In this document: positions 215 to 14,870 of the stretch, one piece after another
Layout of the letters: every line of letters begins with the position of its first letter
Position numbering within the stretch: position 1 is the stretch's first letter
Origin: Hydrurus foetidus
Taxonomy: Eukaryota
Direction of reading: 5' to 3'
NCBI GenBank assembly: GCA_900617105.1
Contig: UYFQ01000001.1
Span: 2,728,001-2,792,000 of the forward strand
DNA length: 64,000 nt
Program-made: the position numbers and the translations under genes
The notes under the pieces: generated by a model
The model's input: only the letters and a program-made list of their open reading frames with translations
Databases searched by the model: none
Told to the model about the DNA's origin: nothing

Positions 215-988
215 ATGAGCGCTTTCAACGAAGAACGTGTGCTGTCCGTCCACCACTGGACCGACAAATTGTTTACCTTCACCACCACACGCGACGAGTC
301 CATGCGATTTAGCAATGGCCACTTCACCATGATTGGCCTGAAGGTCAATGACAAGCCGCTGCTCCGCGCGTACAGCATCGTGTCATCCAACTACGAAGAC
401 CATCTGGAGTTTTTAAGCATCAAGGTGCCCGACGGCCCGCTGACGTCGCGCCTGCAGCACATCCAGGTGGGTGACACGGTCATCGTCGGCAAAAAGCCCA
501 CCGGCACGCTGCTGATTGACTACTTGCTGCCCGGCAAACGCCTGTATTTGTTGTCGACCGGCACCGGGCTGGCTCCGTTCATGAGCATCATCCGCGACCC
601 GGAAACGTACGAAGCTTTTGAGCAAGTGGTGCTGGTACACGGCGTGCGTGAAAAAGACGAGTTGGCCTACCACGACCTGGTGACCGAGCACCTGCCTCAG
701 CACGAGTTTTTAGGCGAAATGATTGCCAAGCAACTGCTGTACTACCCCACGGTAACGCGCGAGTCCTACCGCACCATGGGCCGGGTAACTGACCTCATGG
801 CCAACGGCAAAATGTTTGCCGACCTGAACCTGCCGCCGCTAGACGCCGCCACAGACCGCGTGATGATTTGCGGCAGTCCCGGCATGCTCAAAGACCTCAA
901 AGTGATGCTGGAGGACAAGGGCTTTAAAGAAGGCACCACTTCGAAGCCCGGCGACTTTGTGATTGAACGGGCGTTTGCAGAGAAGTGA
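215..988 (+). CDS. fpr: Ferredoxin--NADP(+) reductase
   Basis: RAYSIVS FAD motif, TGTGLAPF and MICGSPGM motifs; ATG at 215 preferred over the upstream TTG. Confidence 0.95.
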   Translation: MSAFNEERVLSVHHWTDKLFTFTTTRDESMRFSNGHFTMIGLKVNDKPLLRAYSIVSSNYEDHLEFLSIKVPDGPLTSRLQHIQVGDTVIVGKKPTGTLLIDYLLPGKRLYLLSTGTGLAPFMSIIRDPETYEAFEQVVLVHGVREKDELAYHDLVTEHLPQHEFLGEMIAKQLLYYPTVTRESYRTMGRVTDLMANGKMFADLNLPPLDAATDRVMICGSPGMLKDLKVMLEDKGFKEGTTSKPGDFVIERAFAEK

Positions 989-1227
989 GCTTTAGGCTGT
1001 AAAAATAAGGTCGATCGATTCCACCTGCGTTGAGCGTCGGTCTAATAAATAGAGGCTCAACGCGCTATTCAAATCATTATTTTTGATGGCTTTTTGTAAC
1101 CTTTGTCTACTGCGTTCAGCGCTTGCATGAGCTGTTGGCAAAAGGCCAAACAAGCGGGTAACGTGATAGGCCGGATAATGACCAAATTCAGTCCCACATT
1201 CCGTCCAATCAATGCACAAGGGTCGCT

Positions 1228-1506
1228 ATGCCATCCGTCGCCAACATCAAGTCCATTTCTTACCTGAAGAGCCACGCCGCGCAGATTTCTGCAGAGCTGG
1301 AGATGAATGGCAATCCGTTCTTCATCACGCAAAATGGGGATGCCAGCATGGTGATTGAGAGCGTCAAACAGTACCAGGAAAAGGAATCGCTAATTGCCGC
1401 CCTGAAGCTCATGGCCTTGGGTGAAAAAGACCGCATGCAAGGTAAAGGTATTTCCGTTGCTGAGTCACGTGCACAATTGGCCGCAGCCCGCCAGCGCCGC
1501 AATTAG
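1228..1506 (+). CDS. Phd/YefM family antitoxin
   Basis: IKSISYLKSHAAQI...FFITQNG N-terminal pattern; directly upstream of a RelE-like gene. Confidence 0.85.
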   Translation: MPSVANIKSISYLKSHAAQISAELEMNGNPFFITQNGDASMVIESVKQYQEKESLIAALKLMALGEKDRMQGKGISVAESRAQLAAARQRRN

Positions 1507-1511
1507 AAGTT

Positions 1512-1832
1512 ATGGCCATCATCATTCTGCCCGATGCGCAGGAGGATTTGCTCTCGCTTCAGGAGTACATGCTTGACAAGTGGAGCGAAGCGGACTGGCT
1601 CAAGGCCGAGGACGAAATATTCGAGAAGCTGGCGCTGGTTGACACGGGTTTTTTAACTGGAGCGCCCGTCCAGGAATTTGCATCCGTTGGCATCTTTGAA
1701 TACCAAAACGTTTTTACCTCACACCACAAGTTGGTTTATCGGCGTATCAACGCGGACGTTTATGTCTACGTAATTGCAGCGCACCGACAAGATTTCTCGA
1801 CGCTTTTGACGAAGCGGTTACTGAAAATCTGA
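1512..1832 (+). CDS. RelE/ParE family toxin
   Basis: 106 aa, ILPDAQEDL start and HKLVYR...VYVIAAHRQD end; 5 bp after the antitoxin. Confidence 0.85.
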   Translation: MAIIILPDAQEDLLSLQEYMLDKWSEADWLKAEDEIFEKLALVDTGFLTGAPVQEFASVGIFEYQNVFTSHHKLVYRRINADVYVYVIAAHRQDFSTLLTKRLLKI

Positions 1833-1923: not shown

Positions 1924-3552
1924 GTGCGCTCTGCTGGCGCAGGCGTAGGCGCAGCGGTGGGCTTGGCTCTGGGTGGGGCGAAATTTGGCTTTAACGACTT
2001 CGGCAACCAGCTCGTTCGGGGCACCTTAACCGGGCTTGCTGCCGGCACAACTGCAGCGGTCATGCGCGGTGGGCGCATCAGCGTGCAGCAAGTGGCCACT
2101 GATGCGTTTGGCAATGCACTGGGCTCCAGTCTGGCTAGTGGCAGCTTCAGCGGCAGCCAGAACGAAGACCGCTTGGGCGACTCTATAGCCCAGCAAGAGA
2201 CTGCGCAAACCCAGCGTGATCAATACCGCCCCTACACCGGTGGCACAGATTGGGCCACTGATGTGGCCATGCGCCGCGCCAGTTACCCCACTTACGCGCA
2301 GTCCGCACCACAACCCTACGGCAACGACGAGTTTCGAAGCTCCGAGCGTGCTTACCGCAGCGCTACCGAGTCGAGCATGCCTGGCACCAGCAGGCGGGCA
2401 GGCGCGGGCGACTCTATCTCAAGCATGGTGGGCACTAGCGAGCCACAGGCCATTGGCAACTTTATGCGTGCCAACAACCTGACCACAGACAGACTGCAAG
2501 CTGGGGGCACTTACTTTGTGCCAGCAAGCGCTGACTCCTACGGCGACCAGCAAGCGCTGGGGCAAGGCGCATTGAACGCAGGCAACGCACGCATGGCAGC
2601 GCGGCAAGAAGCAGCAGCGCAGGCAGCCTCCATGGACCAGGCTAACCAGCAGCGTTGGGATGCCATGCAGGTGGGGGCTTGGAGTGGGCGCACTGGGCAG
2701 GTTGGTGCGTCGTCGATGGGAGTGGTTACTGGCAGTGCAAGCGGGTCCGCCACATTCAACGACAGTTCCCTATTGGGTGCTGCGGCAGGCGTTGCTGCAT
2801 CTTTTGGCGAAATGGCAGTAGGTGCGGCGCGCATTGGCAGCAACATGATCATGCAAGTGGGCGATATTTTGACTGGCGGATATAACCACAATCATCCAGT
2901 TATGCAGCAGGTATGGTCTGAGCAACAAGCACTAGGCAGGGGCATTGTTAATGCAGTCATCAGCCCACGCTTAACAACAACCAACTTGATCGAAGGCGTT
3001 GTGAATCGCTACGACAACGCGATGACCCAAGGCGGTGACTTTGATCGAAGCTATGAGCTGGGCAAACTGTTTAATGATGTGGGTCAGGGTGCCATCGGCG
3101 CAGGGTTTGCGTTACGCGGTGCGGCGCGTCTGGGAGTTTCTGGGCTGGAGTTTGTTGGGGAAAATGCGTTTTCCGGATCGGCGGTAGGAGGTAAATCTGC
3201 TCAAATGGGTGGCGTAAACTTTGGGGCGCTTTTGAAAGAGCGTATAGGTGAGCCGTCCGTTAATATGGTCGATCCTCATGCGCACCATATTCTTTTCAAG
3301 GAAGGAAATGGAGTAGCGCAAAAGGCACTTGTTGCCGAAGGGCAAGAGCTATTGCGAAGATACGATATCGATCCGATTATGGGGAGTGAGAACATGGTGT
3401 GGGCACCAAACAGAGTGGCAGGTCAACATCATATTGATGCATTGAGGAATGTAGTGGACAACCTGAAATTGACACACGAAAATATCGGAACTCGAGATGC
3501 GATGGTCAACGAGCTTGCGCGATTGGGACGAGTTTCAGCACAAAGAAAGTAA
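1924..3552 (+). CDS. Orphan polymorphic toxin cassette C0 (5'-truncated) with AHH-type nuclease tip
   Basis: Begins inside the Gly-rich arm shared with 9644-9882; degenerate LysM (AGAGDSISS...RANNLTTDRLQAG); C-terminal HAHHIL...ENMVWAPN...HH. Confidence 0.8.
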   Translation: MRSAGAGVGAAVGLALGGAKFGFNDFGNQLVRGTLTGLAAGTTAAVMRGGRISVQQVATDAFGNALGSSLASGSFSGSQNEDRLGDSIAQQETAQTQRDQYRPYTGGTDWATDVAMRRASYPTYAQSAPQPYGNDEFRSSERAYRSATESSMPGTSRRAGAGDSISSMVGTSEPQAIGNFMRANNLTTDRLQAGGTYFVPASADSYGDQQALGQGALNAGNARMAARQEAAAQAASMDQANQQRWDAMQVGAWSGRTGQVGASSMGVVTGSASGSATFNDSSLLGAAAGVAASFGEMAVGAARIGSNMIMQVGDILTGGYNHNHPVMQQVWSEQQALGRGIVNAVISPRLTTTNLIEGVVNRYDNAMTQGGDFDRSYELGKLFNDVGQGAIGAGFALRGAARLGVSGLEFVGENAFSGSAVGGKSAQMGGVNFGALLKERIGEPSVNMVDPHAHHILFKEGNGVAQKALVAEGQELLRRYDIDPIMGSENMVWAPNRVAGQHHIDALRNVVDNLKLTHENIGTRDAMVNELARLGRVSAQRK

Positions 3553-3556
3553 GATT

Positions 3557-4078
3557 ATGCAAACAGAAAAACAGCTCAAAACGCAGGAGATTTTGCGTGT
3601 AATCAGAGCAGATGATCTTTCGGCCTATAAAGCACTCACAAAAGATGACAAGTTATGTTTAGCTGAGATTCCTCCATTAGGCACGCATCTTCACATCGCA
3701 GCAGATGCCGGTAGTCTTGAAATAGTTGAATATTTGGTAGCTCAGGGCGTAGATGTAAACCGTCGAGCTGGAACTATCGGTGGCAATGCACTGAATGAAG
3801 CCGCACCGAAAGGTCATTTGAAAATAATCAAGTATCTTCTCAGTGTCGGCTCTGAAATGGATACAAGTGAACCTGAGAGAAATCCGTTATTCGGCGCAAT
3901 TTACGGAGGCAATGAAGATGGCGTCCGGATATTGATAAATGCAGGAATCGATACGACAATAAAATACACTGGCGAAAGCATGAAGCAGATGGATGCATAT
4001 GCGTTTGCTATTGAACGTGGGCAGTTCAAAATAGCCGAGGTAATTCGTCAGTACTCAGGCAACGAGGTACGGTCTTAA
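3557..4078 (+). CDS. Ankyrin-repeat immunity protein
   Basis: GTHLHIAADAGSLEIVEYLVAQGVDVN ankyrin repeats; 4 bp after the toxin stop; AT-rich. Confidence 0.8.
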   Translation: MQTEKQLKTQEILRVIRADDLSAYKALTKDDKLCLAEIPPLGTHLHIAADAGSLEIVEYLVAQGVDVNRRAGTIGGNALNEAAPKGHLKIIKYLLSVGSEMDTSEPERNPLFGAIYGGNEDGVRILINAGIDTTIKYTGESMKQMDAYAFAIERGQFKIAEVIRQYSGNEVRS

Positions 4079-4370
4079 AAGCAAGAGCACACAAAAATGG
4101 GGTTACGTCTCTTGTTATCGGACGATATTAGAGTCGATTCTTCAATTGTCATTTTTGGTTAAACATCCGCCAGTGGCCCGCCCCCTTCGCCTTAAATTTG
4201 TACACCGGCTTTGCCATATCATCTCCCTAAAGTCATACTTTTAATCAAGCAAATCTGCACAAAAAAATGGAGATTGCTACAGGTCGACCACAATCAACAT
4301 AAGCCGTCGAGTAGAAATCGACCACTAAGCTCAGTTTTCCCAATCAGCGCTACTTAAAAGCATAAAATCA

Positions 4371-4418
4371 AGCCACAGACCAATAAATACGGGCGCAAGC
4401 AGCTACTAAAATCATAGT
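4371..4418 (+). repeat. Dispersed two-hairpin repeat R1
   Basis: Matches consensus AGCCCAATAAATACGGGCGCAAGCAGCTACTAAAATCATAGY. Confidence 0.85.
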
Positions 4419-5233
4419 TCTGTAGAAATCTGCCTGAACCGTTTCGACGTCAACGGCCAGCTAGGAGCGATCACCGACTCCACCGACGCCGCCAAGAACC
4501 GCACCTTCGTCAACGACGCAGCAGGCCGTGCCCTCTTCGTTAACCAAAACGGCCAAGTCCAAAGGCAGTTGATCGTCGCCGGTGAGGTGCTCGGGCGCGT
4601 GGGCACAGAAGCCAGCGGCGCAGCCGTGGCCGACTTCAACTTTGGCTACCGGCCCATTGACGGGCGCTACCCCACAGCCAGCCCAGGCGTGTATGTGGTG
4701 GGCGCGGGTGACACGCTCGAGTCCATTGCCCGCAGCGCCTATGGCGACAGCGCCCTGTGGTACCGCCTGGCCGAGGCCAACGGCCTGAGCAGCAACAACG
4801 ACCTCAAAGTCGGCCAGAGCTTGAGCATCCCGAATCGGGTGGGCACCGAAAGCAACAACGCCTCGAGCTTCAAGCCTTACGATCCGAGCGCAATTACTGG
4901 CAGCACCACGCCGGATGTACCGGTGACCCAGCCCCAGGGCGAGGACGATGACTGCGGCGGGGTTGGGCCATTCATTGTGGTCATTGTGGCGGCGGCAGTG
5001 GTTTACTTCACAGCTGGGGCCGCGTTGGGCGCAATTGGCACTACAACAGCAGCGACTGGCGGCCTGACAGGCGCAACAGCCGTGTCTGCGGTAGGAGCTG
5101 GAACCGCCAGCTGGACGGCAGGCTCGCTCATCGCCGCCGGTGCCATTGGCGGCGCAGCAGGCTCCATTGCTGGTCAAATTGTCGGCAACGCGCTGGGCAT
5201 TCAAAACGGCTTTAGCTGGAAGCAAGTTGCCCT
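4381..5233 (+). repeat. Homology arm A (copy at 8599-9451; partial copies 12511-12739 and 13783-14258)
   Basis: Near-identical direct repeat, offset 4218. Confidence 0.95.
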
Positions 5234-6890
5234 TGGCGCAATTGGCGGCGGCATCAGTGCCGGTCTGGGGGGAATAGGCGGCCAAGGCGGAGTGAACTTT
5301 ACGGGTGCCGCTGAGGGCGCCACAAGTCTAGGCAACCGCATCATTCAAGGCGCGGTCGGCAACGCCCTGACCCAGGGCGTTGGCGTAGTCACAGGCTTGC
5401 AAGAGCATTTCAGCTGGCGCGCGGTAGCTGCCAGTGCTGCCGGCGCAGGGGTCGGCGCAGCGGTGGGCTCGGCTTTGGGTGGGGTGGACTTTGGCTTTAA
5501 CAACTTCGGCAACCAGCTCGTTCGGGGCACCCTGAGCGGGCTGGCAGCGGGCACGACAGCCGCGGTCATGCGCGGTGGGCGCATCAGCGTGCAGCAAGTA
5601 GCTACGGATGCGTTTGGCAATGCGCTGGGCTCCAGTCTGGCGGGTGGCAGCTTTAATGGGGCCAGTCAGCAAGGAGCCGTGCTGCAAGGCGCGGGGCCTT
5701 GGTCTGACCGGGACTATGTCAATGAGATGGACCGGCAAAGTGATAACTACAGCCGCAATCGCCAGAGCCAGCCGTACTACGACCAGATCGTGGGGGCGTT
5801 CGGTGGGGATGCGGGGCCGCGGTATCCGGGGGTGCAGGTAGCCGATGCGGGCAGACTGACGCTATCCGGCGTCACCAGCGATTCAGATGACGCCTACTAC
5901 GCTGGCATCATCGCCAAAGCGCAGGCCCGCGATGTCCAGCGGCAGGCGGCCGTTGCAAGTGGGCGTAGGCTGGATGCGCAAGCCACCACCAACCTGTACG
6001 CCAGTGGCGCGGGGGATGTGCGCGAGACGACTCCAGCGTTCGTACCAACCCTGCCAGAGATAACAGTCACTGCGCCTCGCATGAGCCAAGCCGAAATAAA
6101 TGCGTTTGATCGGCTCAGCCCAGGCGCAGATTCAATCTCTGCGATGGGTGAGCTAGACGGTATCTTGACGTTTAACCCAGCAGGCCAAGCACTGCGCGGA
6201 GCTGGCAACTTTGCCTACGATGCCTGGATGACTGGTCCACGCGCAGTCATCGGCTTGGGTAATCTGGCGCAAGATGCAGTGGGTTACGCCGCCAATGCGA
6301 TCTCGCCAAACCGCAGCGTGCTGACAGGCCAAGCGTTCGCCTATCAACCTCAAAGTGCTCTCATGCAAAGCGTTCAGCAGCAAGGCGTGCTGGGCACTCT
6401 GGGCACGGGCATCACAGGTGTGGTGCTCAATGCGCCGGGCATTGGGTTGATTGGGGCGCTGGCTGCACCAAATCGGAATTGGGGGAATATTGGGGCGCAG
6501 GTGTTGAATACTGGAATGGCCGGGGTAGGTGCCGTGGCCGGCATGCGTGGATCAACCAAGATTGGAGACGCACAAGCGGGACCCTACTCAAATCTCGTAG
6601 ACTCTCCATTTGTTGGGCCCGGTAAGAATTTCACCGCGTCACAAAAAGCAAAAATATTAAAGCAAAACTTTGAGGCAAACGGCGGCGTGTTGCGGTCTGA
6701 CCTAAACGGCGAAGTTTTGGTTCGACCTACCAAGAGCGTTAGAGGCGTTACGCCGCCCGTGAATGAAGCTCAGATCGACCACATTCTTGCGCGAATTCCG
6801 AGCAATCAAAGAGCACCTCCCGGCTCGAATAGTTTTGAGAACGCGCAGGTGTTATCAAGGGAGCAGAATCGTGCAAAGTCAAACAATTAG
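4410..6890 (+). CDS. Orphan toxin cassette C1: RHS/YD tail + LysM + TM/Gly-rich region + HNH nuclease tip
   Basis: Frame open from 4410 after TAA with no ATG near its 5' end; FDVNGQL YD-like repeat; YVVGAGDTLESIAR...AEANGL LysM; tip EAQIDH...GSNSFENAQVLSREQNRAKSN. Confidence 0.8.
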   Translation, partial: NHSSVEICLNRFDVNGQLGAITDSTDAAKNRTFVNDAAGRALFVNQNGQVQRQLIVAGEVLGRVGTEASGAAVADFNFGYRPIDGRYPTASPGVYVVGAGDTLESIARSAYGDSALWYRLAEANGLSSNNDLKVGQSLSIPNRVGTESNNASSFKPYDPSAITGSTTPDVPVTQPQGEDDDCGGVGPFIVVIVAAAVVYFTAGAALGAIGTTTAATGGLTGATAVSAVGAGTASWTAGSLIAAGAIGGAAGSIAGQIVGNALGIQNGFSWKQVALGAIGGGISAGLGGIGGQGGVNFTGAAEGATSLGNRIIQGAVGNALTQGVGVVTGLQEHFSWRAVAASAAGAGVGAAVGSALGGVDFGFNNFGNQLVRGTLSGLAAGTTAAVMRGGRISVQQVATDAFGNALGSSLAGGSFNGASQQGAVLQGAGPWSDRDYVNEMDRQSDNYSRNRQSQPYYDQIVGAFGGDAGPRYPGVQVADAGRLTLSGVTSDSDDAYYAGIIAKAQARDVQRQAAVASGRRLDAQATTNLYASGAGDVRETTPAFVPTLPEITVTAPRMSQAEINAFDRLSPGADSISAMGELDGILTFNPAGQALRGAGNFAYDAWMTGPRAVIGLGNLAQDAVGYAANAISPNRSVLTGQAFAYQPQSALMQSVQQQGVLGTLGTGITGVVLNAPGIGLIGALAAPNRNWGNIGAQVLNTGMAGVGAVAGMRGSTKIGDAQAGPYSNLVDSPFVGPGKNFTASQKAKILKQNFEANGGVLRSDLNGEVLVRPTKSVRGVTPPVNEAQIDHILARIPSNQRAPPGSNSFENAQVLSREQNRAKSNN
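5331..5724 (+). repeat. Homology arm B (copies at 9537-9930 and partially 1931-2167)
   Basis: Direct repeat encoding GNRIIQGA...VATDAFGNALGSSL. Confidence 0.9.
6199..6547 (+). repeat. Homology arm C (copy at 7235-7583)
   Basis: Direct repeat, offset 1036. Confidence 0.95.
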
Positions 6891-6899
6891 GAATCTCAA

Positions 6900-7181
6900 A
6901 TGGACTGGAAATTTCAAGATCCACCTAACGTAGCGGTCATTACAAATAGCAAAATCGTGAAAGATGGTGACTGGATTGCCTACGTTACGCACGATGAAAG
7001 TGACGGAGGTTGGCAGTTTCACAACCAAGAGCCGGTGAATGAGCAGGATGCTTTGGTCGTAAGCCTCAGAAGCATTTTTGAGCTAGATAGCAGTATTGGC
7101 GCATTAGCGGACCTTCCCATCGGCTGGCACGCGTGGCGCGAAACAAAGGGTGCGCCGTGGCAACGAAGCAAAGCGGCGTAG
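6900..7181 (+). CDS. Immunity protein (DUF2185/Imm33-like)
   Basis: HDESDGGWQF...LADLPIGW motif; 9 bp after the HNH toxin stop. Confidence 0.7.
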   Translation: MDWKFQDPPNVAVITNSKIVKDGDWIAYVTHDESDGGWQFHNQEPVNEQDALVVSLRSIFELDSSIGALADLPIGWHAWRETKGAPWQRSKAA

Positions 7182-7263
7182 ACATTGAGTAATTGGGGTC
7201 AACCCCTGCCGTCTTATTGGCGCTCCGCCCAGGTGAGCTGGCAACTGTGCCTACGATGCCTGG

Positions 7264-8031
7264 ATGACTGGTCCACGCGCAGTCATCGGCTTGGGCAATC
7301 TGGCGCAGGATGCTGTAGGTTACGCCGCCAATGCGATCTCGCCAAACCGCAGTGTGCTGACAGGCCAAGCGTTCACCTATCAACCTCAAAGTGCTCTCAT
7401 GCAAAGCGTTCAGCAGCAAGGCGTGCTGGGCACTCTGGGCACGGGCATCACAGGTGTGGTGCTCAATGCGCCGGGCATTGGGTTGATTGGGGCGCTGGCT
7501 GCACCTAATCGGGAGTGGGGGAATATTGGCGGGCAGGTGCTGAATACTGGGATGGCCGGGGTAGGTGCAGCTGCAAGCATGCGAGCAGGAAGCAGCGTCA
7601 ACAACGTTTCGGTGCTTGAAGCAACCGCACGTAAAGGGGGTTGGCCGGCTACGGGTGGTGCAGGGCCTGTTCCCGGAACTATCGGTATTACTAATCAAAC
7701 ATCGGTCGGTGCATTGAAGAATTACAACCCAAAGGGCGGCGGAGTTGAGTTTGTCTATGATCCGCGTTCAAGCACTTTTGTTGCGGGTCGTCCTGCTGCC
7801 GGCTTATTTGATGGATCTCCCCATCAACAGCTTGCCCAATCCATTGGCATAGTAGATCAACCTATTGTTGGAGGAACAATGCAGCGGGGCGCAAACGGTG
7901 AGTTTTACTTTACCGAAAACAGCGGTCATTTTGGGCAGAATTGGACAAATACAAATCGACAGCAATTCACGGACTGGTTTAGTCAACGTGTTGGTAGCCC
8001 AGTAACTCACAATCCATGGAGTGGTAGATGA
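7264..8031 (+). CDS. Orphan toxin cassette C2 with Ntox43-like tip
   Basis: About the first 100 aa duplicate C1 (6228-6547); tip EFVYDP...SPHQQL...VGG...ENSGHFG. Confidence 0.7.
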   Translation: MTGPRAVIGLGNLAQDAVGYAANAISPNRSVLTGQAFTYQPQSALMQSVQQQGVLGTLGTGITGVVLNAPGIGLIGALAAPNREWGNIGGQVLNTGMAGVGAAASMRAGSSVNNVSVLEATARKGGWPATGGAGPVPGTIGITNQTSVGALKNYNPKGGGVEFVYDPRSSTFVAGRPAAGLFDGSPHQQLAQSIGIVDQPIVGGTMQRGANGEFYFTENSGHFGQNWTNTNRQQFTDWFSQRVGSPVTHNPWSGR

Positions 8032-8489
8032 ACATAGATTTTCTTGCACCCCCGGCAGACCTTCCGCCTTATCTTTGGTTGGTTAAAGTTGGTCCAAGAA
8101 AACTGGGACTACATCAGCAAAAAGGTTGGTGTATGGAGGTTAACGAGCAGGTCGTGTTTTTTGATTCTGAAGACAAATGCGTACCTCTTGTCCCGATTCT
8201 TGAAGTCGAGGCAGAGAAATTCTTCGAGTTTTTGAAGAGTGCTGCGCTTCTGCATCCGTCTCAATCGGAAGACATAAATAAATTTCCTAAGGTACTACTG
8301 CTTAAACATGTCTTCCATACTTCTTTTTCTGGATATTGGCCGGAAAGAGCTTTAGGGTGGTTAGGCACTGATGAAGCGATTCAACCTTTGTTCAGAGCTG
8401 AGCTTGATAAATTTGTTCAGAATAAAACAATGTCGCAAGGAGCGCGCCAAAACGCGAAGCGGATAACGCACAAGCTCTCATTGGTTTGA
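8028..8489 (+). CDS. Putative immunity protein for C2 (family not recognised)
   Basis: ATGA overlap with the toxin stop; AT-rich; positional argument only. Confidence 0.6.
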   Translation: MNIDFLAPPADLPPYLWLVKVGPRKLGLHQQKGWCMEVNEQVVFFDSEDKCVPLVPILEVEAEKFFEFLKSAALLHPSQSEDINKFPKVLLLKHVFHTSFSGYWPERALGWLGTDEAIQPLFRAELDKFVQNKTMSQGARQNAKRITHKLSLV

Positions 8490-8588
8490 TGGGCGCTCCA
8501 GACAGCATGAATAACGGGGTCAGGTCTTTCGTTATCACACGCATCTCGGGTTTGGGCTTTTAAGTAGCATCAACGGCAGATCAAATAA

Positions 8589-8636
8589 GCTTTCAGCCCA
8601 ATAAATACGGGCGCAAGCAGCTACTAAAATCATAGT
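8589..8636 (+). repeat. R1 copy
   Basis: AGCCCAATAAATACGGGCGCAAGCAGCTACTAAAATCATAGT. Confidence 0.85.
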
Positions 8637-11180
8637 TCTGTAGAAATCTGCCTGAACCGTTTCGACGTCAACGGCCAGCTAGGAGCGATCACCGACTCCA
8701 CCGACGCCGCCAAGAACCGCACCTTCGTCAACGACGCAGCAGGCCGGGCTCTCTTCGTTAACCAAAACGGCCAGGTCCAAAGGCAGCTGATCGTCGCCGG
8801 TGAGGTGCTCGGGCGGGTCGGCATAGAAGCCAGCGGCGCGGCCGTGGCCGACTTCAACTTTGGCTACCGGCCCATTGACGGGCGCTACCCCACTGCCAGC
8901 CCAGGCGTGTATGTGGTGGGCGCGGGTGACACGCTCGAGTCCATTGCCCGCAGCGCCTATGGCGACAGCGCCCTGTGGTACCGCCTGGCCGAGGCCAACG
9001 GCCTGAGCAGCAACAACGACCTCAAAGTCGGCCAGAGCTTGAGCATCCCCAACCGGGTGGGCACCGAAAGCAACAACGCCTCGAGCTTCAAGCCTTACGA
9101 TCCGAGCGCAATTACTGGCAGCACCACGCCGGATGTACCGGTACCCCAGCCCCAGGGCGAGGACGATGACTGCGGCGGGGTTGGGCCATTCATTGTGGTC
9201 ATTGTGGCGGCGGCAGTGGTTTACTTCACAGCTGGGGCCGCGTTGGGCGCAATTGGCACTACAACAGCAGCGACTGGCGGCCTGACAGGCGCAACAGCCG
9301 TGTCTGCGGTAGGAGCTGGAACCGCCAGCTGGACGGCAGGCTCGCTCATCGCCGCCGGTGCCATTGGCGGCGCAGCAGGCTCCATTGCTGGTCAAATTGT
9401 CGGCAACGCGCTGGGCATTCAAAATGGCTTTAGCTGGAAGCAAGTAGCCTTGAGCGCCATTGCTGGGGGCATTGGCGCGGGCATCAGCGGGGCAGGCGTA
9501 GCAGGCCGGGGCATCACTTTCGTTGAAAACGAGATCGGCAACCGCATCATCCAGGGCGCTATCGGCAACGCCCTGACCCAAGGCATTGGCGTAGTCACAG
9601 GCTTGCAAGAGCATTTCAGCTGGCGCGCGGTAGCTGCCAGTGCTGCTGGCGCAGGGGTGGGCGCAGCGGTGGGCTCGGCTCTGGGTGGGGTGAAATTTGG
9701 CTTTAACGACTTCGGCAACCAGCTGGTTCGGGGCACCTTAACCGGGCTTGCTGCCGGCACAACTGCAGCGGTCATGCGCGGTGGGCGCATCAGCGTGCAG
9801 CAAGTGGCCACTGATGCGTTTGGCAATGCGCTGGGCTCCAGTCTGGCCGGTGGCAGCTTTAATGGGGCCAGTCAGAACGAAGCCGTGCTTCACGGCGCGG
9901 GGCCTTGGTCTGAGCGGGACTATGTCAATGGTTTGGACTTGCAGAGTGATCGCTATCACGCTCCCGTCAGTAATGCGGCGCTGCAAGGAGACAACGCGAT
10001 GTGGGATGACGCGGCGCCAACGTCTATGGCAGAGCGCTACGCGCAGACTTACGGCGGGCAGGCCTACGATGCGGCAGATAAATTTAGCATGAGTAACGTG
10101 CGCGGCAGATTAAGTAGTGACGACAACATCATCAACGCGGTACAGATGCGCGAGCTTAATCAGATGCAGCGCAACATAGCTGAGCTGAACGCGCTGTCGG
10201 CTCAAATGAGTACAGATCGGCAACTCGGCAATATCGAGGAATTAGGCAAGGCGTATGGCGCTGCAGGCTATGGCGCAGGCGATCCTTATGCGCTGCCCGC
10301 AGGCATAGCCCCAAGTGCAGACCGTTGGATACCAGGCGGGCCCTTACCGCAAGATGGAGGCACAGTAGTTGGCAAGCGCATGAGCCAAGCCGAGATGGAT
10401 GCGTTTGACCGCCAAAGCGGCAGCTACAACGCAGGCAGTGGACTCAAACTGCCTGGCACTAGCGGGATGGACGACTTCGGGCGAGGATGGTCAAGCCGGG
10501 GCAGCGACTGGAGCGCGCTAGAAGGTGACAAACCCCTGTCCTACTCGCTGGGCAGTGGGATGCGTACCAGCCTGGGTCTGGTGTACGACGGCCTAACAGG
10601 TGCAGAATCGTTCAATCAAGCGGGGCAAGCTTGGCGAGCCGGAAACTACGGCACGGCGGCGCTGCATGGCATGCAGGGTGTAGGCACAGCAGGCTTGACG
10701 GCAATGACGCTGGGGGACTATGCGCTGGCTAAGGCTGCTGTGACTGGGATGGCGGGTAACACTGGGTTGCGGGTTACGGAGGAGGAGGCATTTAGCACTC
10801 TCGTGCCTGGAGGTGGTCTTGCTGCTCATGAAGCTGCCGGCGGGCATCTTTTGTTAAAGCATGTTGGGCAAACTGAGCCGCAGTTACTCAATAGATTGAT
10901 GGTTGAGCCAAACATCTCCGGGGCATCATCGTTTTACAACAGAGCTACCGCTGAGTCTGCTGTGAGCCGGGCGCTTGATTCGAAGCAAGGAGAAATTGGT
11001 ACGTGGCTAGGTGGCAACAAGCCACAACTTAAAGTCGAGTATTCGCTCCAAGAAAATGTAGGGGTTACAGTTCAGCGAGGCGCGTCGCGTGCCACAGACG
11101 CAAGCAATCTAAGACTCTACCTCCTTCGAGATACCAACATGCCCAATGGCTATCGCATTCATACAGGATTTCCACAATGA
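8628..11180 (+). CDS. Orphan toxin cassette C3: RHS/YD tail + LysM + TM/Gly-rich region + bacterial RNase A-like (CdiA-CT type) tip
   Basis: 5' part near-identical to C1; tip GGLAAHEAAGGHLLLKHVG...ASSF...YRIHTGFP. Confidence 0.8.
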   Translation, partial: NHSSVEICLNRFDVNGQLGAITDSTDAAKNRTFVNDAAGRALFVNQNGQVQRQLIVAGEVLGRVGIEASGAAVADFNFGYRPIDGRYPTASPGVYVVGAGDTLESIARSAYGDSALWYRLAEANGLSSNNDLKVGQSLSIPNRVGTESNNASSFKPYDPSAITGSTTPDVPVPQPQGEDDDCGGVGPFIVVIVAAAVVYFTAGAALGAIGTTTAATGGLTGATAVSAVGAGTASWTAGSLIAAGAIGGAAGSIAGQIVGNALGIQNGFSWKQVALSAIAGGIGAGISGAGVAGRGITFVENEIGNRIIQGAIGNALTQGIGVVTGLQEHFSWRAVAASAAGAGVGAAVGSALGGVKFGFNDFGNQLVRGTLTGLAAGTTAAVMRGGRISVQQVATDAFGNALGSSLAGGSFNGASQNEAVLHGAGPWSERDYVNGLDLQSDRYHAPVSNAALQGDNAMWDDAAPTSMAERYAQTYGGQAYDAADKFSMSNVRGRLSSDDNIINAVQMRELNQMQRNIAELNALSAQMSTDRQLGNIEELGKAYGAAGYGAGDPYALPAGIAPSADRWIPGGPLPQDGGTVVGKRMSQAEMDAFDRQSGSYNAGSGLKLPGTSGMDDFGRGWSSRGSDWSALEGDKPLSYSLGSGMRTSLGLVYDGLTGAESFNQAGQAWRAGNYGTAALHGMQGVGTAGLTAMTLGDYALAKAAVTGMAGNTGLRVTEEEAFSTLVPGGGLAAHEAAGGHLLLKHVGQTEPQLLNRLMVEPNISGASSFYNRATAESAVSRALDSKQGEIGTWLGGNKPQLKVEYSLQENVGVTVQRGASRATDASNLRLYLLRDTNMPNGYRIHTGFPQ

Positions 11181-11461
11181 GATCGAATTTTCCTCACCTT
11201 GAAGAGCTGATAGGTGGATACTTCCATCAGGATTGGAAAACTTATGCTTCGACTGCCGCGGCGGTGTTAGAGAGATATCTCAATGAATGGCCAGCCGAAG
11301 ACATTCCGAAGGTGGCTAAGGAGTTGCTGGCTGTGTTAGCACAAAGCGATCAAGCCATTGATGCCACCATGAACCTAATGGAATGCGGTTACTGGCCTGC
11401 TGGGGATGGCATGAGCTATCGAGATTGGCTAACCCAAATGGCACGACGCTTAGCAAAATAG
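11177..11461 (+). CDS. CdiI-type immunity protein
   Basis: FPHLEELIGGYFHQDW motif; ATGA overlap with the toxin stop. Confidence 0.8.
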   Translation: MRSNFPHLEELIGGYFHQDWKTYASTAAAVLERYLNEWPAEDIPKVAKELLAVLAQSDQAIDATMNLMECGYWPAGDGMSYRDWLTQMARRLAK

Positions 11462-11627
11462 CGTGGTTATTGGGTCATCGTGCTCAATGGGGTCAAGTCT
11501 TTCAATCCGAGGTGCTTTCCACCGCCGGCTCATTCGTCAAGATGGCAAGTCGATATAAAAACCATAGTAAATTTGAAAAAGTAGCAACAAACCTGTCAGT
11601 GCCAGCCCTAAATTCGCTCAGATCCGC

Positions 11628-12269
11628 CTAAAAACCAATCGGCTTGCTTACCAACTTGCCGTTCGCCAGCTCAATCACGTTGGGTAGCTGCGCTTCGCGC
11701 AAGTGCTTGTCATGTAAATGCAGGCTGCCTGTTGCGCCTTGCATCAGGCTTTTGGCGGGGTTGTTGTCAGGGTGAATGATCAAAATGGTTTTGCCTCGCG
11801 CCGCGCTAAATTGCACTGGAGCCGTCAAATCAGAATCGTTCGTCAGCACCGCAGCCACTTCAAAGGCGTTGTTCCAGGCGTCATTGAGCAGATGGCTCCC
11901 TAAGTTGACATCGGAGCCTTTTTCTTCTGGTCGCCAAACTGAAACTGCTTCAATAAGTTGGCCATCTGCGTCGGCGATGGGTTCGACCAAGCGGTAGTTC
12001 ACCTTGGTGGTCAGGAATTGCCCCATCACAATTTGCAGCTTGGGCAGTGTGCCCAGTGCACGCAGGTAAGCTTGCTGGCGCAAAGGTTTGTGCGCATCAA
12101 ATTTACCGGTCACCTGCGCGGTGAAATACTTAACCGCAACAACATCATCGTCGGGAAACAGGCTCTCAAACAACGCCACCAAATTCAGCCAGCGATATGG
12201 CTGGTTACGTAGCCTGCGGTAGTAGAAATTAAACCCATCGACATAGGCAATGACTCGCCGCTTGGCCAT
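11628..12269 (-). CDS. NYN (LabA/DUF88, PIN-like) domain RNase
   Basis: YVDGFNFYY, EEKGSDVNLG and TNDSDL acidic motifs; ATG at 12269. Confidence 0.9.
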   Translation of the reverse strand: MAKRRVIAYVDGFNFYYRRLRNQPYRWLNLVALFESLFPDDDVVAVKYFTAQVTGKFDAHKPLRQQAYLRALGTLPKLQIVMGQFLTTKVNYRLVEPIADADGQLIEAVSVWRPEEKGSDVNLGSHLLNDAWNNAFEVAAVLTNDSDLTAPVQFSAARGKTILIIHPDNNPAKSLMQGATGSLHLHDKHLREAQLPNVIELANGKLVSKPIGF

Positions 12270-12291
12270 GATGACGAACCCAGGAAAGGCA

Positions 12292-12345
12292 AGAGCCGCA
12301 CTAGGCGGCTCTCGAACCCTGTGACGAAGCAGCAGGGGGTGTAAT
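12292..12345 (-). ncRNA. Candidate structured leader RNA upstream of the NYN gene (two hairpins)
   Basis: CCCTG/CAGGG stem (12317-12337) and AGAGCCGC/GCGGCTCT stem (12292-12312) between promoter and ATG. Confidence 0.45.
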
Positions 12346-12349
12346 CTGT

Positions 12350-12379
12350 ATTTTAGTTCATTCATTTGCTTAAGTGCAA
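12350..12379 (-). promoter_or_regulatory. Sigma70-like promoter for the NYN leader
   Basis: TTGCAC-N18-TAAAAT on the minus strand. Confidence 0.55.
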
Positions 12380-12452
12380 ATGTGGCAACGATGCGACTAG
12401 AACCAGGTTTTGCGCGGTAGCATCTTCAACCCAACTTTCAAGCATCAAATCA

Positions 12453-12500
12453 AGCTACAGCCCAATCAATACCGGCGCAAGCAGCTACTAAAACCATAGT
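12453..12500 (+). repeat. R1 copy
   Basis: AGCCCAATCAATACCGGCGCAAGCAGCTACTAAAACCATAGT. Confidence 0.85.
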
Positions 12501-12510
12501 CATATTGATA

Positions 12511-12739
12511 CCCGCCTGAACCGTTTTGTCGTCAACGGCCAGCTAGCCGCGATCACCGACTCCACCGACACCTCCAAGAACCGCACCTTCGTCAACGACG
12601 CAGCAGGCCGTGCCCTCTTCGTTAACCAAAACGGCCAGGTCCAAAGGCAGCTGATCGTCGCCGGCGAGGTGCTCGGGCGGGTCGGCTTTGAAGCTACCGG
12701 CGCAGCCGTGGCCGACTTCAACTTTGGCTACCGGCCCAT
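12511..12739 (+). pseudogene. Cassette stub S1 (RHS/YD tail only)
   Basis: About 230 bp copy of 4432-4658, cut before the LysM domain where the PIN gene ends. Confidence 0.85.
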
Positions 12740-12753
12740 CCGACGATCTGTCG

Positions 12754-13176
12754 CTAAGGCGAATACATCAACCGCTGCAGCGCCATCGCAGGGCTCAAAA
12801 TCGCAATCGCTCCAAAACTGACCAGCGAGAGCAAATCCTCGTCACCCGAGATAATCAGGTCAGCTTGCGCAGCAATGGCCAACGCCAGCAATGCATCATC
12901 ATCGCGGTCGCGACAAACAGGCGTGGCAAGCGGCGGCGGATCAATAACTTCGGCCAGCATGCGCACTTGCAACAGCATCTGCTCGCGCGAAGAATTTGAC
13001 CGATCAATGATCGCGTCAAACTTAGGCCGCGCCAGCACTTCAGCCAATTCAGCTAGCAGCTCTGGGCTACTGATGAAGGTCAACTCACCGCTGCGCACAT
13101 GCTCCAGCAGCGCATTAGGTGGGCCGCGCCAGAGCAAGCCCGCCAGCAATACGTTTGTGTCTAAAACCGCACGCAC
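12754..13176 (-). CDS. PIN family (VapC-like) toxin
   Basis: VLDTNVL...CRDRDDD...ISGDEDLL motifs. Confidence 0.9.
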   Translation of the reverse strand: MRAVLDTNVLLAGLLWRGPPNALLEHVRSGELTFISSPELLAELAEVLARPKFDAIIDRSNSSREQMLLQVRMLAEVIDPPPLATPVCRDRDDDALLALAIAAQADLIISGDEDLLSLVSFGAIAILSPAMALQRLMYSP

Positions 13177-13228
13177 CCGCTGGCGATACTTTAGTCGCCG
13201 TGACTGCTCTGCAAGACTTTAGCTGGGC

Positions 13229-13474
13229 TCAATGCTGCGCACCGCGCAAGCGGTCTGCACGCGCAGCTTTGACCTCGGCGTTGATCTCTTGCATCGACAC
13301 GGGTGCAATGCCCGCATCAGCGACTCGCCCGGCTACCGCTAGAAGGGAGTCAGCAGCCTCACGCTTGCGAAGCGCCTGCGTCAGCAACCTATCCAGAGCT
13401 TGTGGGGTGAGCAAACCCGCTGCGCGAGCAGCTGAGGCAGTGCCATCGGGCAATTCAATTTGAAGCGTGGTCAT
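13229..13474 (-). CDS. Putative antitoxin for the PIN toxin
   Basis: 81 aa, MTTLQIELPD...MQEINAEVKAAR; immediately upstream of the PIN gene. Confidence 0.7.
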   Translation of the reverse strand: MTTLQIELPDGTASAARAAGLLTPQALDRLLTQALRKREAADSLLAVAGRVADAGIAPVSMQEINAEVKAARADRLRGAQH

Positions 13475-13711
13475 GCGGCACTTTCCTAATGTGGTTTGCG
13501 AATATATCGATCTGATTTTACGCTTCGTGTTTAAAAATGTGAGTGAAGAACTTAGGGCGAAGAATTTAGGGCCAGGTTTTGCAACCAAGCAAATCTGTGC
13601 CGCGAAAATTGAGCTGGTGCAGGCTCACCACGATCAAAAAGCCGCCGTTTAGCAGAAGTCGACCCCCAGGCTCGATTATTTCACTCAACCCGACTTTTAA
13701 GCATAAAATCA

Positions 13712-13759
13712 AGCTACAGCGCAATCAATACGGGCGCAAGCAGCTACTAAAACCATAGT
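13712..13759 (+). repeat. R1 copy
   Basis: AGCGCAATCAATACGGGCGCAAGCAGCTACTAAAACCATAGT. Confidence 0.85.
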
Positions 13760-13782
13760 GACGTAGATTCCTGCCCGTGCCC

Positions 13783-14258
13783 TTTCGACATCAACGGCCA
13801 GCTAGCCGCGATCACCGACTCCACCGACGCCGCCAAGAACCGCACCTTCGTCAACGACGCAGCAGGCCGTGCCCTCTTCGTTAACCAAAACGGCCAAGTC
13901 CAAAGGCAGCTGATCGTTGCCGGTGAGGTGCTCGGGCGGGTCGGCTTTGAAGCTACCGGCGCGGCCGTGGCCGACTTCAACTTTGGCTACCGGCCCATTG
14001 ACGGGCGCTACCCCACTGCCAGCCCAGGCGTGTATGTGGTGGGTGCGGGTGACACGCTCGAGTCCATTGCCCGCAGCGCCTATGGCGACAGCGCCCTGTG
14101 GTACCGCCTGGCCGAGGCCAACGGCCTGAGCAGCAACAACGACCTCAAAGTCGGCCAGAGCCTAACCATCCCCAACCGGGTGGGCACCGAAAGCAACAAC
14201 GCCTCGAGCTTCAAGCCTTACGATCCAAGCGCAATTACTGGCAGTACGACACCGGATG
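13783..14258 (+). pseudogene. Cassette stub S2 (RHS/YD tail + LysM, no toxin)
   Basis: Copy of 4442-4917; homology ends at YDPSAITGSTTPD. Confidence 0.85.
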
Positions 14259-14321
14259 GGAACAATCGAGGTCAAACTCCCATTAATTTCAACCCAAAAC
14301 TGCGAAAATATAATATTAAAA

Positions 14322-14370
14322 GCCATCTAGCCCAATCAATACGGGCGCGAGCAGCTATTAACAAAATAGC
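14322..14370 (+). repeat. R1 copy
   Basis: AGCCCAATCAATACGGGCGCGAGCAGCTATTAACAAAATAGC. Confidence 0.85.
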
Positions 14371-14447
14371 ATTACTGGAGGCCTACTTCTGCGCAGTGGC
14401 ACATTGGTTCTCCACCGCAGGGGCGCTCTGGCGACTAAACTCTGCGC

Positions 14448-14870
14448 ATGCTCTGGGTTAAATCATTTCACATCGTTTTTGTGGCCAGCTGGTTTGCGGG
14501 CCTGTTTTACTTGCCCCGGATTTTCGTGAATCTGGCCATGGTGCCCGCAGGCAGCATCGCCGAGCGCGAGCGCCTGCTGCTGATGTCGCGCAAGCTGCTG
14601 CGGTTCACGCAAATTTTGTCAGTGCCAGCAGTGGGTTTGGGTGTGTGGCTGTGGCTCGCCTACGGCATAGGCCAAGGCAGCGGCTGGATGCACGCCAAGC
14701 TGGCCGTGGTGGTGCTGGCCATCGGCTACCAACACCTGTGCGGCCGCATTCACCGCCAGTTTGTCGCTAACCGAAACGCTAAAAGCCACGTGTGGTTCAG
14801 ATGGTTTAACGAAGCCCCTGTGCTGATGCTGGTAGCCGCCGTGGTGCTGGTGATCGTCAAGCCGTTTTAA
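14448..14870 (+). CDS. hemJ: Protoporphyrinogen oxidase HemJ
   Basis: WVKSFHIVFVASWFAGLFYLPR, WMHAKL and FNEAP motifs. Confidence 0.9.
   Translation: MLWVKSFHIVFVASWFAGLFYLPRIFVNLAMVPAGSIAERERLLLMSRKLLRFTQILSVPAVGLGVWLWLAYGIGQGSGWMHAKLAVVVLAIGYQHLCGRIHRQFVANRNAKSHVWFRWFNEAPVLMLVAAVVLVIVKPF

Follow-up and report, generated by a model that had tools for sequence, protein, structure and literature searches.

We characterized a 13-kb array located between fpr and hemJ in a stretch of 64,000 nt (the window) from an assembly listed under Hydrurus foetidus (GCA_900617105.1, contig UYFQ01000001.1). The carrier of the array is a bacterium. Four headless tip/immunity cassettes (C0 to C3) and two stubs (S1 and S2) make up the array, with toxin-antitoxin (TA) genes interspersed. 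The preliminary description had counted four tip/immunity pairs and two stubs, placed every cassette on the forward strand and named the same flanking genes; the ORFs, Pfam matches and repeated arms (A, B, and C) agree with that layout, and both flanks were identified by Pfam. It made no mention of the Phd/ParE, NYN, and PIN genes, the junctions between REP-like repeats and arm A, or the half-sites at module ends. The features are as follows.

215..988, +, fpr (ferredoxin-NADP reductase), left flank; Pfam NAD_binding_1 and FAD_binding_6
1039..1079, +, degenerate copy of the REP-like repeat (family D5, 68%)
1228..1832, +, type II TA pair capping the array: Phd/YefM antitoxin (1228-1506) and ParE toxin (1512-1832); PF02604, PF05016
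1931..3552, +, cassette C0, whose sole arm is B (1931-2167), followed by a linker and a nuclease tip (AHH-like, about 3200-3552)
3557..4078, +, predicted ankyrin immunity gene; Pfam Ank_2, E 4e-34
4064..4111, +, pair of degenerate REP-like half-sites (RAYT-type) at which the C0 module ends on its 3' side
4358..4417, +, REP-like repeat, source of the TAA (4407-4409) ahead of the C1 arm A
4437..6890, +, cassette C1, made up of arms A (4437-5233), B (about 5340-5654), and C (6199-6547) and an HNH-like tip
6900..7181, +, predicted Imm33-like immunity gene; Pfam PF09951, E 0.0015, below cut-off
7195, +, degenerate half-site before C2
7235..8031 (frame 7237-8031), +, cassette C2, an Ntox43 tip behind a further copy (349 bp) of arm C
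8028..8489, +, unnamed 153-aa gene, likely Ntox43 immunity, on the basis of position
8516..8528, +, exact RAYT-type REP half-site
8595..8635, +, REP-like repeat ahead of the C3 arm A
8655..11180 (frame 8628-11180), +, cassette C3, with arms A and B and an RNase A-like tip; Pfam LysM and RNAse_A_bac, E 5e-26
11177..11461, +, CdiI_2 immunity gene; Pfam PF18593, E 8e-22
11489..11501, +, exact RAYT-type REP half-site
11628..12275, -, NYN-like (PIN-fold) gene; Pfam NYN, E 0.006, below cut-off
12459..12739, +, REP-like repeat and stub S1 (about 12520-12739), which covers the initial ~73 codons of arm A
12754..13474, -, PIN_3/TIGR00305 toxin (12754-13176) with its antitoxin-like partner (13229-13474); the pair separates S1 from S2
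13718..14285, +, REP-like repeat and stub S2 (arm A through LysM, about 13778-14258), with a half-site-like motif at 14270
14329..14369, +, REP-like repeat closing the array
14448..14870, +, hemJ (UPF0093), right flank; Pfam PF03653

The cassettes lack heads, as previously described: the C0 open frame (1876-3552) has no usable start, and the C1 (4410-6890) and C3 frames begin at 4410 and 8628, directly 3' of a TAA that belongs to a copy of the REP-like repeat. The arm frames begin after stops, with neither an ATG nor a spaced Shine-Dalgarno sequence ahead of the arms, and promoter-like sites occur at chance level (10 vs. 7.2 +/- 3.0). In contrast to these start-less fragments, an immunity gene with its own ATG lies directly 3' of every tip, AGGA or GGAG being found closely upstream of three of the four, and neither the four tips nor the four immunity genes contain a single stop or frameshift. 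In C1, where Pfam detects LysM, arm A corresponds to the last YD segment plus LysM, and the cassette shares 40-50% identity with YD/RHS-LysM proteins of 1.4-4 kaa; homology to the full-length family extends over 206 longer proteins, nearly all with RHS_repeat and most with LysM (alignment A3). Start-less fragments, tips that are each paired with a separately initiated immunity gene, and homology to a full-length toxin family are the marks of an orphan array. Judged by this homology, the cassettes and stubs are 5'-truncated pieces of a family of giant YD/RHS-LysM polymorphic toxins. The arrangement of C1 and C2, where arm C is repeated ahead of the Ntox43 tip, is a classic signature of C-terminal displacement.

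Among the domain labels given earlier, Ntox43, RNase A-like, ankyrin, and CdiI were borne out, whereas AHH and HNH are weaker than stated and the match of the C1 immunity gene is below cut-off. The C0 tip had no Pfam match at E<=1 and is AHH-like by its motif and its AHH neighbors in the ESM Atlas (0.93-0.95), and the sole match of the C1 tip was HNH_4 at E 0.55. The 153-aa gene had no match in Pfam or NCBIfam and fell in unnamed Atlas clusters (0.95-0.96, low recognition); a so far nameless, likely Ntox43 immunity protein is thereby brought to notice. In agreement with the preliminary description, no YD core was matched within the 64-kb window, and a profile scan of 17 array-region ORFs gave no recombinase, integrase, or secretion family; an Rfam scan of 900-17000 returned no match. 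The position upstream of the array is occupied by the TA pair and fpr rather than by a full-length toxin gene.

The arm repeats are 220-1370 bp long and 88-95% identical, far above chance. Between the C1 and C3 copies of arm A there are 13 silent changes and two replacements (pN/pS 0.054; binomial P 1.5e-6), and pN/pS was 0.05-0.28 over nine arm pairs, with one pair (S1/S2) not significant. The arms thus show purifying selection. Four differences between C1 and C3 lie 5' of the first conserved GTG and all four are silent, so selection presumably worked on a longer parent, and the prevalence of silent differences suggests that the arms were likely drawn from functional alleles of kin. In five of six pairs, differences were concentrated in the spacer just 3' of the REP-like repeat (6-7 of 15 positions vs. 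6-14 of 200 within the arm). Among four arms, each of the three possible 2:2 splits was present (9, 1, and 1 sites), a recombination signal consisting of two single sites. In related strains (P0122, P0344, P0232, and P0348), this truncated arm is joined to different tips or occurs in stubs; P0122 has the same arm allele as the array and another tip, and S2 itself is found in the ENA protein P0348, where the read-through from S2 to hemJ also recurs.

Copy number was assessed by depth in contigs of two deep runs (X1/X2; about 1,100-1,200x), which are identical in sequence to the window and are the probable source of its assembly. Relative depth over arm A was 3.76/4.08 in X1/X2 at 13924, where the window has four copies, 2.91 at 14048-14131 and 2.67 at 14227, where it has three, and 1.75 at 9177, where it has two; all 10 variant rows matched letters of window copies. 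Because depth equals the window copy number and every variant letter comes from the window, there is no fifth copy of arm A at >=80% identity, a paralogue below 80% or a parent in other strains being outside the reach of this test. The X1/X2 contigs contain every unique segment, together with its joins to the arms, at uniform depth and with no differences. Contig placement dropped some records and missed 30-nt overlaps (e.g., the contig upstream of S1), so that loose contig ends are uninformative, and contigs do not span the arms of 0.3-0.8 kb, which leaves the order of the units without an independent check.

The nearest genome (G001, 81% complete) yielded no full-length gene closely matching in arm A, and 204 genomes of its genus gave two matches only, one a giant gene at 38% identity and the other a stub. 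Among 363 aligned proteins, all eight that are >=83% identical to arm A are truncated and start at or after the same GTG, whereas the best with an N-terminal extension reached 69% and the best with >500 aa upstream 65%. Full-length members of the YD-LysM family are common, occurring in 48 of 76 loci, and arm cassettes with no YD-core match genome-wide were found in G052 (98% complete), G515 (100%), G074 (92%), and G230. A Polaromonas MAG (G229) has the same anatomy, with cassettes, stubs, TA genes on the reverse strand, REPs, and half-sites, and its stub ends at a motif like that of S2.

The REP-like repeat is found genome-wide, with 17 copies in the window, and all four copies of arm A begin directly 3' of it. 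The exact half-site follows only two of the four immunity genes; at two mismatches the window holds five half-sites vs. 1.8 expected, a number reached in 4 of 100 shuffles and not clearly above chance. The half-sites in the window are single, and no Y1 transposase lies there between inverted REPs; complete Y1/REP elements are present in L094, L123, L142, and G052. As for the TA genes, homologues of the PIN partner occupy the same place in L140 (81%) and L132 (39%). A TA gene lies <=1.8 kb upstream in 6 of 8 parentless loci, whereas none was present in the 16 control stretches that follow an intact gene (Fisher P 2e-4), in a comparison of hand-sorted loci, two of the eight from one genome, whose control position differs from the test position; four of the six were identified by Pfam and two by likeness to the window's antitoxin, and with Pfam only the Fisher P is 0.007.

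These observations lead us to propose that the array is probably a defensive immunity bank, stabilized by TA genes and fed by homologous recombination, in a strain apparently without a full-length toxin. Arms A, B, and C would act as homology anchors for gaining tip and immunity DNA from working alleles of kin or from similar arrays, by homologous or homology-facilitated illegitimate recombination whose 3' junction would often fall at REP-like sequences. The junction of REP and arm A may have arisen once and then been copied, the arm interiors being refreshed later while the spacer drifted. Lacking starts and export signals, the tips would be silent, while the immunity genes may be translated and shield the cell from toxins of its neighbors. 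TA genes between direct-repeat arms would kill cells that lose a segment by loop-out, and the array with its "empty" stubs would therefore persist. Expressed orphan cdiI (PMC3150448) and the orphan-only Gilliamella apicola (PMC8125069) are precedents for an immunity bank, and TA modules stabilize integron arrays (PMC13108822).

The preliminary description had combined an immunity bank with a remote archive that donates cassettes, by gene conversion, to a full-length YD-LysM gene that is expressed from another site in the genome. The bank is plausible, given intact immunity genes with their own ATG and, in three of four, AGGA or GGAG; the archive is quite improbable. Its arms are indeed intact, silent-site biased, and mosaic, and full-length family members are common, but depth and variant letters exclude a further arm A copy at >=80% identity, no such gene was found in G001 or the 204 genus genomes (the outcome that the preliminary description itself had set as counting against its reading), and conversion would require a second homology 3' of each immunity gene, where only the ~60-bp genome-wide REP is common. 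With no depth trace of a matching full-length gene, a store of immunity is likelier than an archive for a toxin made elsewhere. It is rather unlikely that the array is a neutral relic, in which a C-terminal-displacement array lost its parent by deletion and became an inert, junk-collecting hot spot. The displacement signature at C1-C2, the parent-plus-orphan loci of the family (L077, L082, L122, and L130), the start of C0 at arm B, as if a parent had formerly stood upstream, and flanks that are not syntenic in the genus (hemB precedes hemJ in 21 of 24 relatives) are all consistent with such a history; however, all eight tip and immunity frames are free of stops and frameshifts, spacers have drifted where arms have not, and the same truncated arm carries other tips or stubs in related strains. 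A decaying remnant, which the preliminary description had allowed for, is likewise too weak an account of intact frames and arms under purifying selection. The neutral relic and the immunity bank differ solely in present use.

Expression of the cassettes from internal starts, either as intracellular type II TA-like pairs, as reported for Salmonella rhs (PMC7043789), or as short LysM toxins without a YD cage, seems improbable. It would suit it that the frames are long and unbroken (773 and 791 aa from TTG/GTG), that all four arms share a conserved GTG, that LysM-only homologues of 700-1,200 aa are numerous, and that genuine TA genes adjoin the cassettes, but the conserved GTG lacks Shine-Dalgarno-like spacing, the silent-site bias continues 5' of it and in the tip-less stubs, and promoter-like sites do not exceed chance. 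Very improbable is a site-specific system in which REP half-sites are cut, and cassettes moved, by a trans-acting HUH transposase of the Y1/RAYT type. The half-site at 8516..8528 also flanks Y1_Tnp genes directly 3' of an immunity gene in L094, L123, and L142, it makes up 75 REP copies in G052, and stubs of the window and G229 end at a like motif; against this, the array has no transposase, the Y1_Tnp of G001 (35% identical) has no such flanks, the two exact motif matches in G001 lie within coding genes, at control level, and the window sites are single, mostly degenerate halves. An assembly artefact from collapsed or expanded repeats, also foreseen earlier, is scarcely credible: the arms are too long for contigs to span, but all unique segments and arm joins stand at uniform ~1,100-1,200x without differences, arm depth matches copy number, and the S2-hemJ join recurs in P0348.

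The proposed immunity bank requires kin donors with a full-length arm allele, present or recent. No kin with a full-length gene carrying the array's arm allele were found, and repeats would break short-read assemblies there. More tentatively, the array might be a recombinase-free, integron-like capture platform formed after a costly giant YD-LysM toxin was shed: the REP-fused last fragment of the gene would be a repeated landing pad that harvests tip/immunity modules from armed kin along with TA modules (S1-PIN-S2), TA caps would lock in the decapitated allele and the array, and this disarmed-but-immune state would have recurred independently across Burkholderiales. Orphan tips have been explained either as a stock from which the parent gene is reloaded or as a by-product of collecting immunity genes, views that are hard to tell apart when the parent is next door. 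A locus with intact tips, recurrent TA caps, and no parent separates the two and makes ideas of defense and stabilization directly testable; it also highlights a large Burkholderiales family of 4,000-8,000-aa YD-LysM toxins. A search of mostly open-access literature turned up no paper on arrays of this family or on TA-capped orphans.

The pilS/pilE and vls archives consist of silent partial copies with conserved flanking homology. The array shares both traits; unlike those archives, it has no coding homology on the 3' side of the variable part to serve as a second arm, and depth and variant letters revealed no expression locus sharing the cassette flanks at >=80% identity. Orphan rhs-CT/rhsI and cdiA-CT/cdiI arrays (Poole et al., 2011, PMC3150448; Koskiniemi et al., 2014, PMC3967940) likewise have start-less tips that keep a conserved parent stretch, with a separately initiated immunity gene behind each tip, and show displacement as at C1-C2. 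Here, in contrast, no full-length gene stands upstream or, by depth, elsewhere, the parent family is giant YD-LysM, and the cassettes alternate with TA genes, REPs, and stubs that lack a tip. In Gilliamella apicola, orphan tips with linked immunity genes occur alone, which its authors read as defense, and the tips have their counterparts in another genus and in T6SS-type Rhs (PMC8125069). Our locus likewise consists of orphan tips with linked immunity genes, and differs in being one tandem array with a lineage-specific repeated arm and TA caps; no arm A-sharing parent was found by depth (>=80%) or in G001 (81% complete). Silent MafB-CT cassettes of Neisseria, alternative C-termini with immunity genes that are swapped between strains, are also similar, but lie downstream of full-length mafB in the same island (PMC4287609).

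Polyimmunity loci (Zhang et al., 2012, PMC3482391) and Bacteroidales rAID (PMC12247911) resemble the array in their co-oriented defense immunity genes and repeated intergenic motifs. The former are never interrupted by toxin cassettes, whereas here tips alternate with immunity genes; the latter have no toxin cassettes and a linked tyrosine recombinase, a family absent from the 17 ORFs scanned here. Vibrio T6SS immunity arrays combine a 5' homology anchor with an illegitimate 3' junction, the mechanism proposed here, and travel between strains by homologous recombination; they keep an active effector at the head and have lost old effectors, while our array keeps its tips and has no active head gene (PMC5361080). 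Finally, in chromosomal integron arrays, too, direct repeats enclose silent cassettes, and TA modules probably guard against their deletion (PMC13108822). The array, however, has no intI integrase among its ORFs, and its repeat unit is a toxin-gene fragment of several hundred bp, which suits RecA rather than IntI.

The interval between fpr and hemJ was found to hold the array of cassettes seen in the preliminary description: four headless tip/immunity cassettes (C0-C3) and two tip-less stubs (S1, S2). Segments of homology (arms A, B and C) are repeated among them, together with a REP-like repeat (REP), as follows.

215-988: fpr, the left flank
Element 1: degenerate REP-like repeat
Element 2: Phd/ParE pair
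Element 3: cassette C0 and ankyrin gene
Element 4: REP, cassette C1 and Imm33-like gene
Element 5: cassette C2 (Ntox43) and unnamed gene
Element 6: REP, cassette C3 (RNAse_A_bac) and CdiI_2
Element 7, minus strand: NYN-like gene
Element 8: REP and stub S1
Element 9, minus strand: PIN toxin and partner
Element 10: REP and stub S2
Element 11: final REP
14448-14870: hemJ, the right flank
4437-5233: arm A, whole in C1 and C3, partial in S1 and S2
Arm B: present in C0, C1 and C3
6199-6547, second copy 7235-7583: arm C

In giant YD/RHS-LysM proteins, representatives of which reach 5,000-7,800 aa, arm A corresponds to the last YD segment and the LysM domain. Altogether 206 longer relatives were found, and nearly all of the 120 listed contain RHS_repeat; the YD core had no match across the whole 64-kb window. 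The frames of C1 and C3 do open at 4410 and 8628, as had been claimed, and the stop preceding them is part of a repeat that occurs in 17 copies in the window; the distance from this repeat to the start of arm A is equal for all four copies of the arm. The tips lack starts and the immunity genes have them, and C1-C2 shows the classic displacement signature. Of the tip names given earlier, AHH for C0 is based on a motif and Atlas neighbours and HNH for C1 on a weak Pfam match. The Atlas clusters to which the unnamed 153-aa gene behind Ntox43 (8028-8489) is similar, at 0.95-0.96, consist of unnamed proteins, which suggests that its product is a candidate for an undescribed immunity family. An exact look-up of 10 window ORFs found none of them in the collection searched, and scans for promoters and terminators stayed at chance level.

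The preliminary description had read the array as a remote archive that, in the manner of pilS or vls, feeds a full-length toxin gene elsewhere. Copy number, read from contig depth in two deep sequencing runs matching the window (X1 and X2), did not support this model; stub S2 served as the reference, and the identity threshold was 80%. At 13924, four single-depth contigs in X1 sum to 4,267, and the sum in X2 is 4,463; an X1 contig covers 14048-14131 at 3,380x, and depth is 3,038x at 14227 in X2 and 2,070x at 9177 in X1. The depth ratios (3.8, 4.1, 2.9, 2.7 and 1.75) match the window's own 4, 4, 3, 3 and 2 copies, and all 10 variant letters listed are those of C1, C3 or S1. Depth and variant letters are thus accounted for by the window's arm copies alone, for arms at least 80% identical, a paralogue below 80% being invisible to this reading. 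A near-identical fifth copy of arm A would have doubled one contig or added another. Loose contig ends are uninformative on the presence or absence of a parent, since contig overlaps of 30 nt go undetected; some records also drop out of the depth data, as did the contig expected at 14164 in X2. Extra arm copies were also considered for contig ends one base short relative to a simulation (12560, 12711 and 13819) and are unsupported by depth; error k-mers linking copies would explain these ends. X1, with 93% of the words sampled, and X2, with 91%, are probably the source of the window and therefore not independent of it; their contigs, which cannot span the arms, show no differences over unique segments and joins into arms at about 1,000-1,240x. 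In the ENA protein P0348, the same stub S2 reads through into hemJ.

Among relatives, the search for a parent turned up neither an arm nor a YD core or RHS repeat in the nearest genome (G001, 81% complete), whose hemJ, 98% identical to that of the window, is located at a contig end. Matches were obtained in two of 204 genomes of the genus, as a 5,471-aa frame 38% identical and one stub. Among 363 aligned proteins, drawn from searches limited to about 8,000 candidates or made on 50% clusters, all eight that are at least 83% identical start at or after the same GTG, and the best protein bearing an N-terminal extension is 69% identical. Because these candidate sets are restricted and the repeated arm would break short-read assemblies, a parent may exist in other strains. 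An exact 36-nt pattern of arm A had no match in metagenome contigs, a set that may omit records near the window, and one of 80 loci in viral contigs is a real family member, the others being LysM-only.

Most of the differences between arm copies are silent. In arm A, C1 and C3 are separated by 13 silent changes and 2 replacements (pN/pS 0.054, P 1.5e-6), and pN/pS is 0.05-0.28 in nine arm pairs, with P <0.02 in eight of them. This silent bias continues upstream of the first conserved GTG, where four of four changes are silent, and into the tip-less stubs, which leads us to infer that the source of the bias was working full-length alleles. The 15 bases behind REP differ at 6-7 positions in five of the six pairs, vs. 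6-14 per 200 within the arm; over these 15 bases, there is no difference between C1 and C3. All three 2:2 splits of the four arms are present, two of them resting on one site each. The pattern fits an old REP-arm junction with arm interiors that would have been renewed by recombination. In the database protein P0122, this arm allele (85%) is joined to a different tip.

When the best 76 of 568 confirmed stretches were sorted by hand, 48 loci had a full-length frame, 4 carried a frameshift or lay behind a parent, 16 were truncated at a contig end and 8 were orphan-only; all five metagenome loci are long frames ending at a contig edge. A Polaromonas MAG (G229) shares the anatomy of the window, with three cassettes, two stubs, REPs and half-sites; PIN and BrnT toxin-antitoxin (TA) genes are on its minus strand, and an antitoxin with 81% identity points away from an arm. 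The YD search of this MAG (completeness not given) returned nothing beyond YD remnants in the cassettes themselves and weak matches to 1,200-1,400-aa frames. Four genomes with arm cassettes or stubs (G052, G515, G074 and G230) left the YD core unmatched, and a distant control (G073) matched it. In G052, arm cassettes on two contigs (L017, L019, L071 and L240) have a common 5′ junction inside LysM, and PIN/DUF2281, XRE and AbiEi genes flank one of them. Among neighbours of other family members, FliQ-type export genes (Bac_export_3) adjoin full-length YD-LysM toxin loci on the 3′ side (L142 14970-15236; L145 12954-13433), a lead to the export route of these toxins, and Tpt1/KptA RNA 2′-phosphotransferase genes, possibly an RNA-repair defence, lie behind two toxin/immunity pairs (L092 14606-15145; L141 13048-13590).

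A TA gene was found within 1.8 kb upstream at six of the eight orphan-only loci vs. none of 16 random stretches behind intact genes (Fisher P 2e-4; 0.007 with Pfam calls alone), the control stretches differing in position from the test stretches and two of the loci, L113 and L140, coming from one genome. Four were called by Pfam (L103 PIN, L113 ParE, L119 VapBC, L134 AbiEi) and two by likeness to the window's antitoxin (L132, L140); L104 and L146 had none within this distance, and the G515 array had no TA match. In the window, every interval between arm repeats carries an immunity or TA-type gene, the S1-S2 interval a TA pair only. About 130 bp upstream of REP before C1 (4243-4376) resemble 13583-13717 before S2, which lie upstream of the PIN-TA operon, so that this TA neighbour may formerly have stood at C1 as well.

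The REP-like intergenic repeat (~60 bp) occurs at 17 window sites on both strands, about one per 4 kb (16604, 34102, 36901, 50792 and 54724 among them), and its arm-linked copies have a common derived 3′ end. Another degenerate copy of the REP junction, with no arm behind it, follows CdiI_2 (11545-11576). An Rfam scan of 900-17000 had no matches. On the 3′ side, an exact 13-nt motif lies behind two immunity genes (8516 and 11489), and degenerate forms lie behind the other two and at the end of stub S2; one G229 stub likewise ends at such a motif. The same motif flanks transposase genes directly behind immunity genes at three loci.

Y1_Tnp (RAYT-like) genes with flanking repeats, each behind the immunity gene of a full-length YD-LysM toxin
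L094, 13385-14527: Y1_Tnp gene
L123, 13404-14328: Y1_Tnp gene
L142, 13739-14674: Y1_Tnp gene

Since it flanks these genes and occurs in G052 in 75 mostly paired copies, the motif is a REP of the RAYT type. G001 has it twice, inside genes, at control level, and the window count at two mismatches (5) is marginally above shuffles. We read the window copies as probable footprints brought in with the cassettes, often at an illegitimate junction. In the papers searched, the half-site motif matched unrelated primers only.

The fpr-hemJ interval, put forward in the preliminary description as a unit to compare among relatives, was compared across the genus, and its synteny is not conserved: fpr lies within 1.5 kb of hemJ at none of 24 loci. 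Instead, hemB precedes hemJ in 21 of 24 relatives, vs. a hemJ detached from hemB in the window (14448); in G001 (C156), the neighbours of hemB are a tRNA and a gene for cytochrome c, so that this lineage is rearranged here. A contig from a sediment metagenome (X4) links 986, the fpr end, to 14328, in REP, across 21 letters and is possibly an empty allele; we discounted it as evidence, since it may merely run into any REP copy. Elsewhere in the window, a second island-like block (about 47400-57300, minus strand) carries an AAA ATPase, a restriction-modification-like helicase and methylase, and a Fic-like gene identified by its first residues only.

Judged from sequence, the most likely function of the array is that of an immunity bank, the other role proposed for it in the preliminary description. 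Tip and immunity DNA would enter via arm homology, the 3′ side being closed by a REP-associated junction or by another crossover, located in the REP+arm unit that follows; a like entry mechanism has been proposed for Vibrio arrays (PMC5361080). E. coli EC93 translates its orphan cdiI (PMC3150448). Loop-out between arms would lead to lost immunity or post-segregational killing and so be costly, since every inter-arm interval carries an immunity or TA-type gene, and integron arrays are stabilised by TA cassettes (PMC13108822). An alternative is internal expression as TA pairs, which has been described for Salmonella rhs (PMC7043789). As an immunity bank, the array would resemble in its working the orphan arrays known from rhs, cdi and maf loci (PMC3150448; PMC3967940; PMC4287609; bioRxiv 2025.05.08.652813), which, unlike that of the window, have an upstream parent. 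It is neither a polyimmunity locus in the published definition (PMC3482391) nor rAID (PMC12247911). Orphan-only genomes are already known, since G. apicola has orphan Rhs tips only, interpreted as defence (PMC8125069). The array is set apart from these systems by a tandem layout that is parentless and built on repeats of a REP+arm unit, and by TA caps, which recur in unrelated Burkholderiales.
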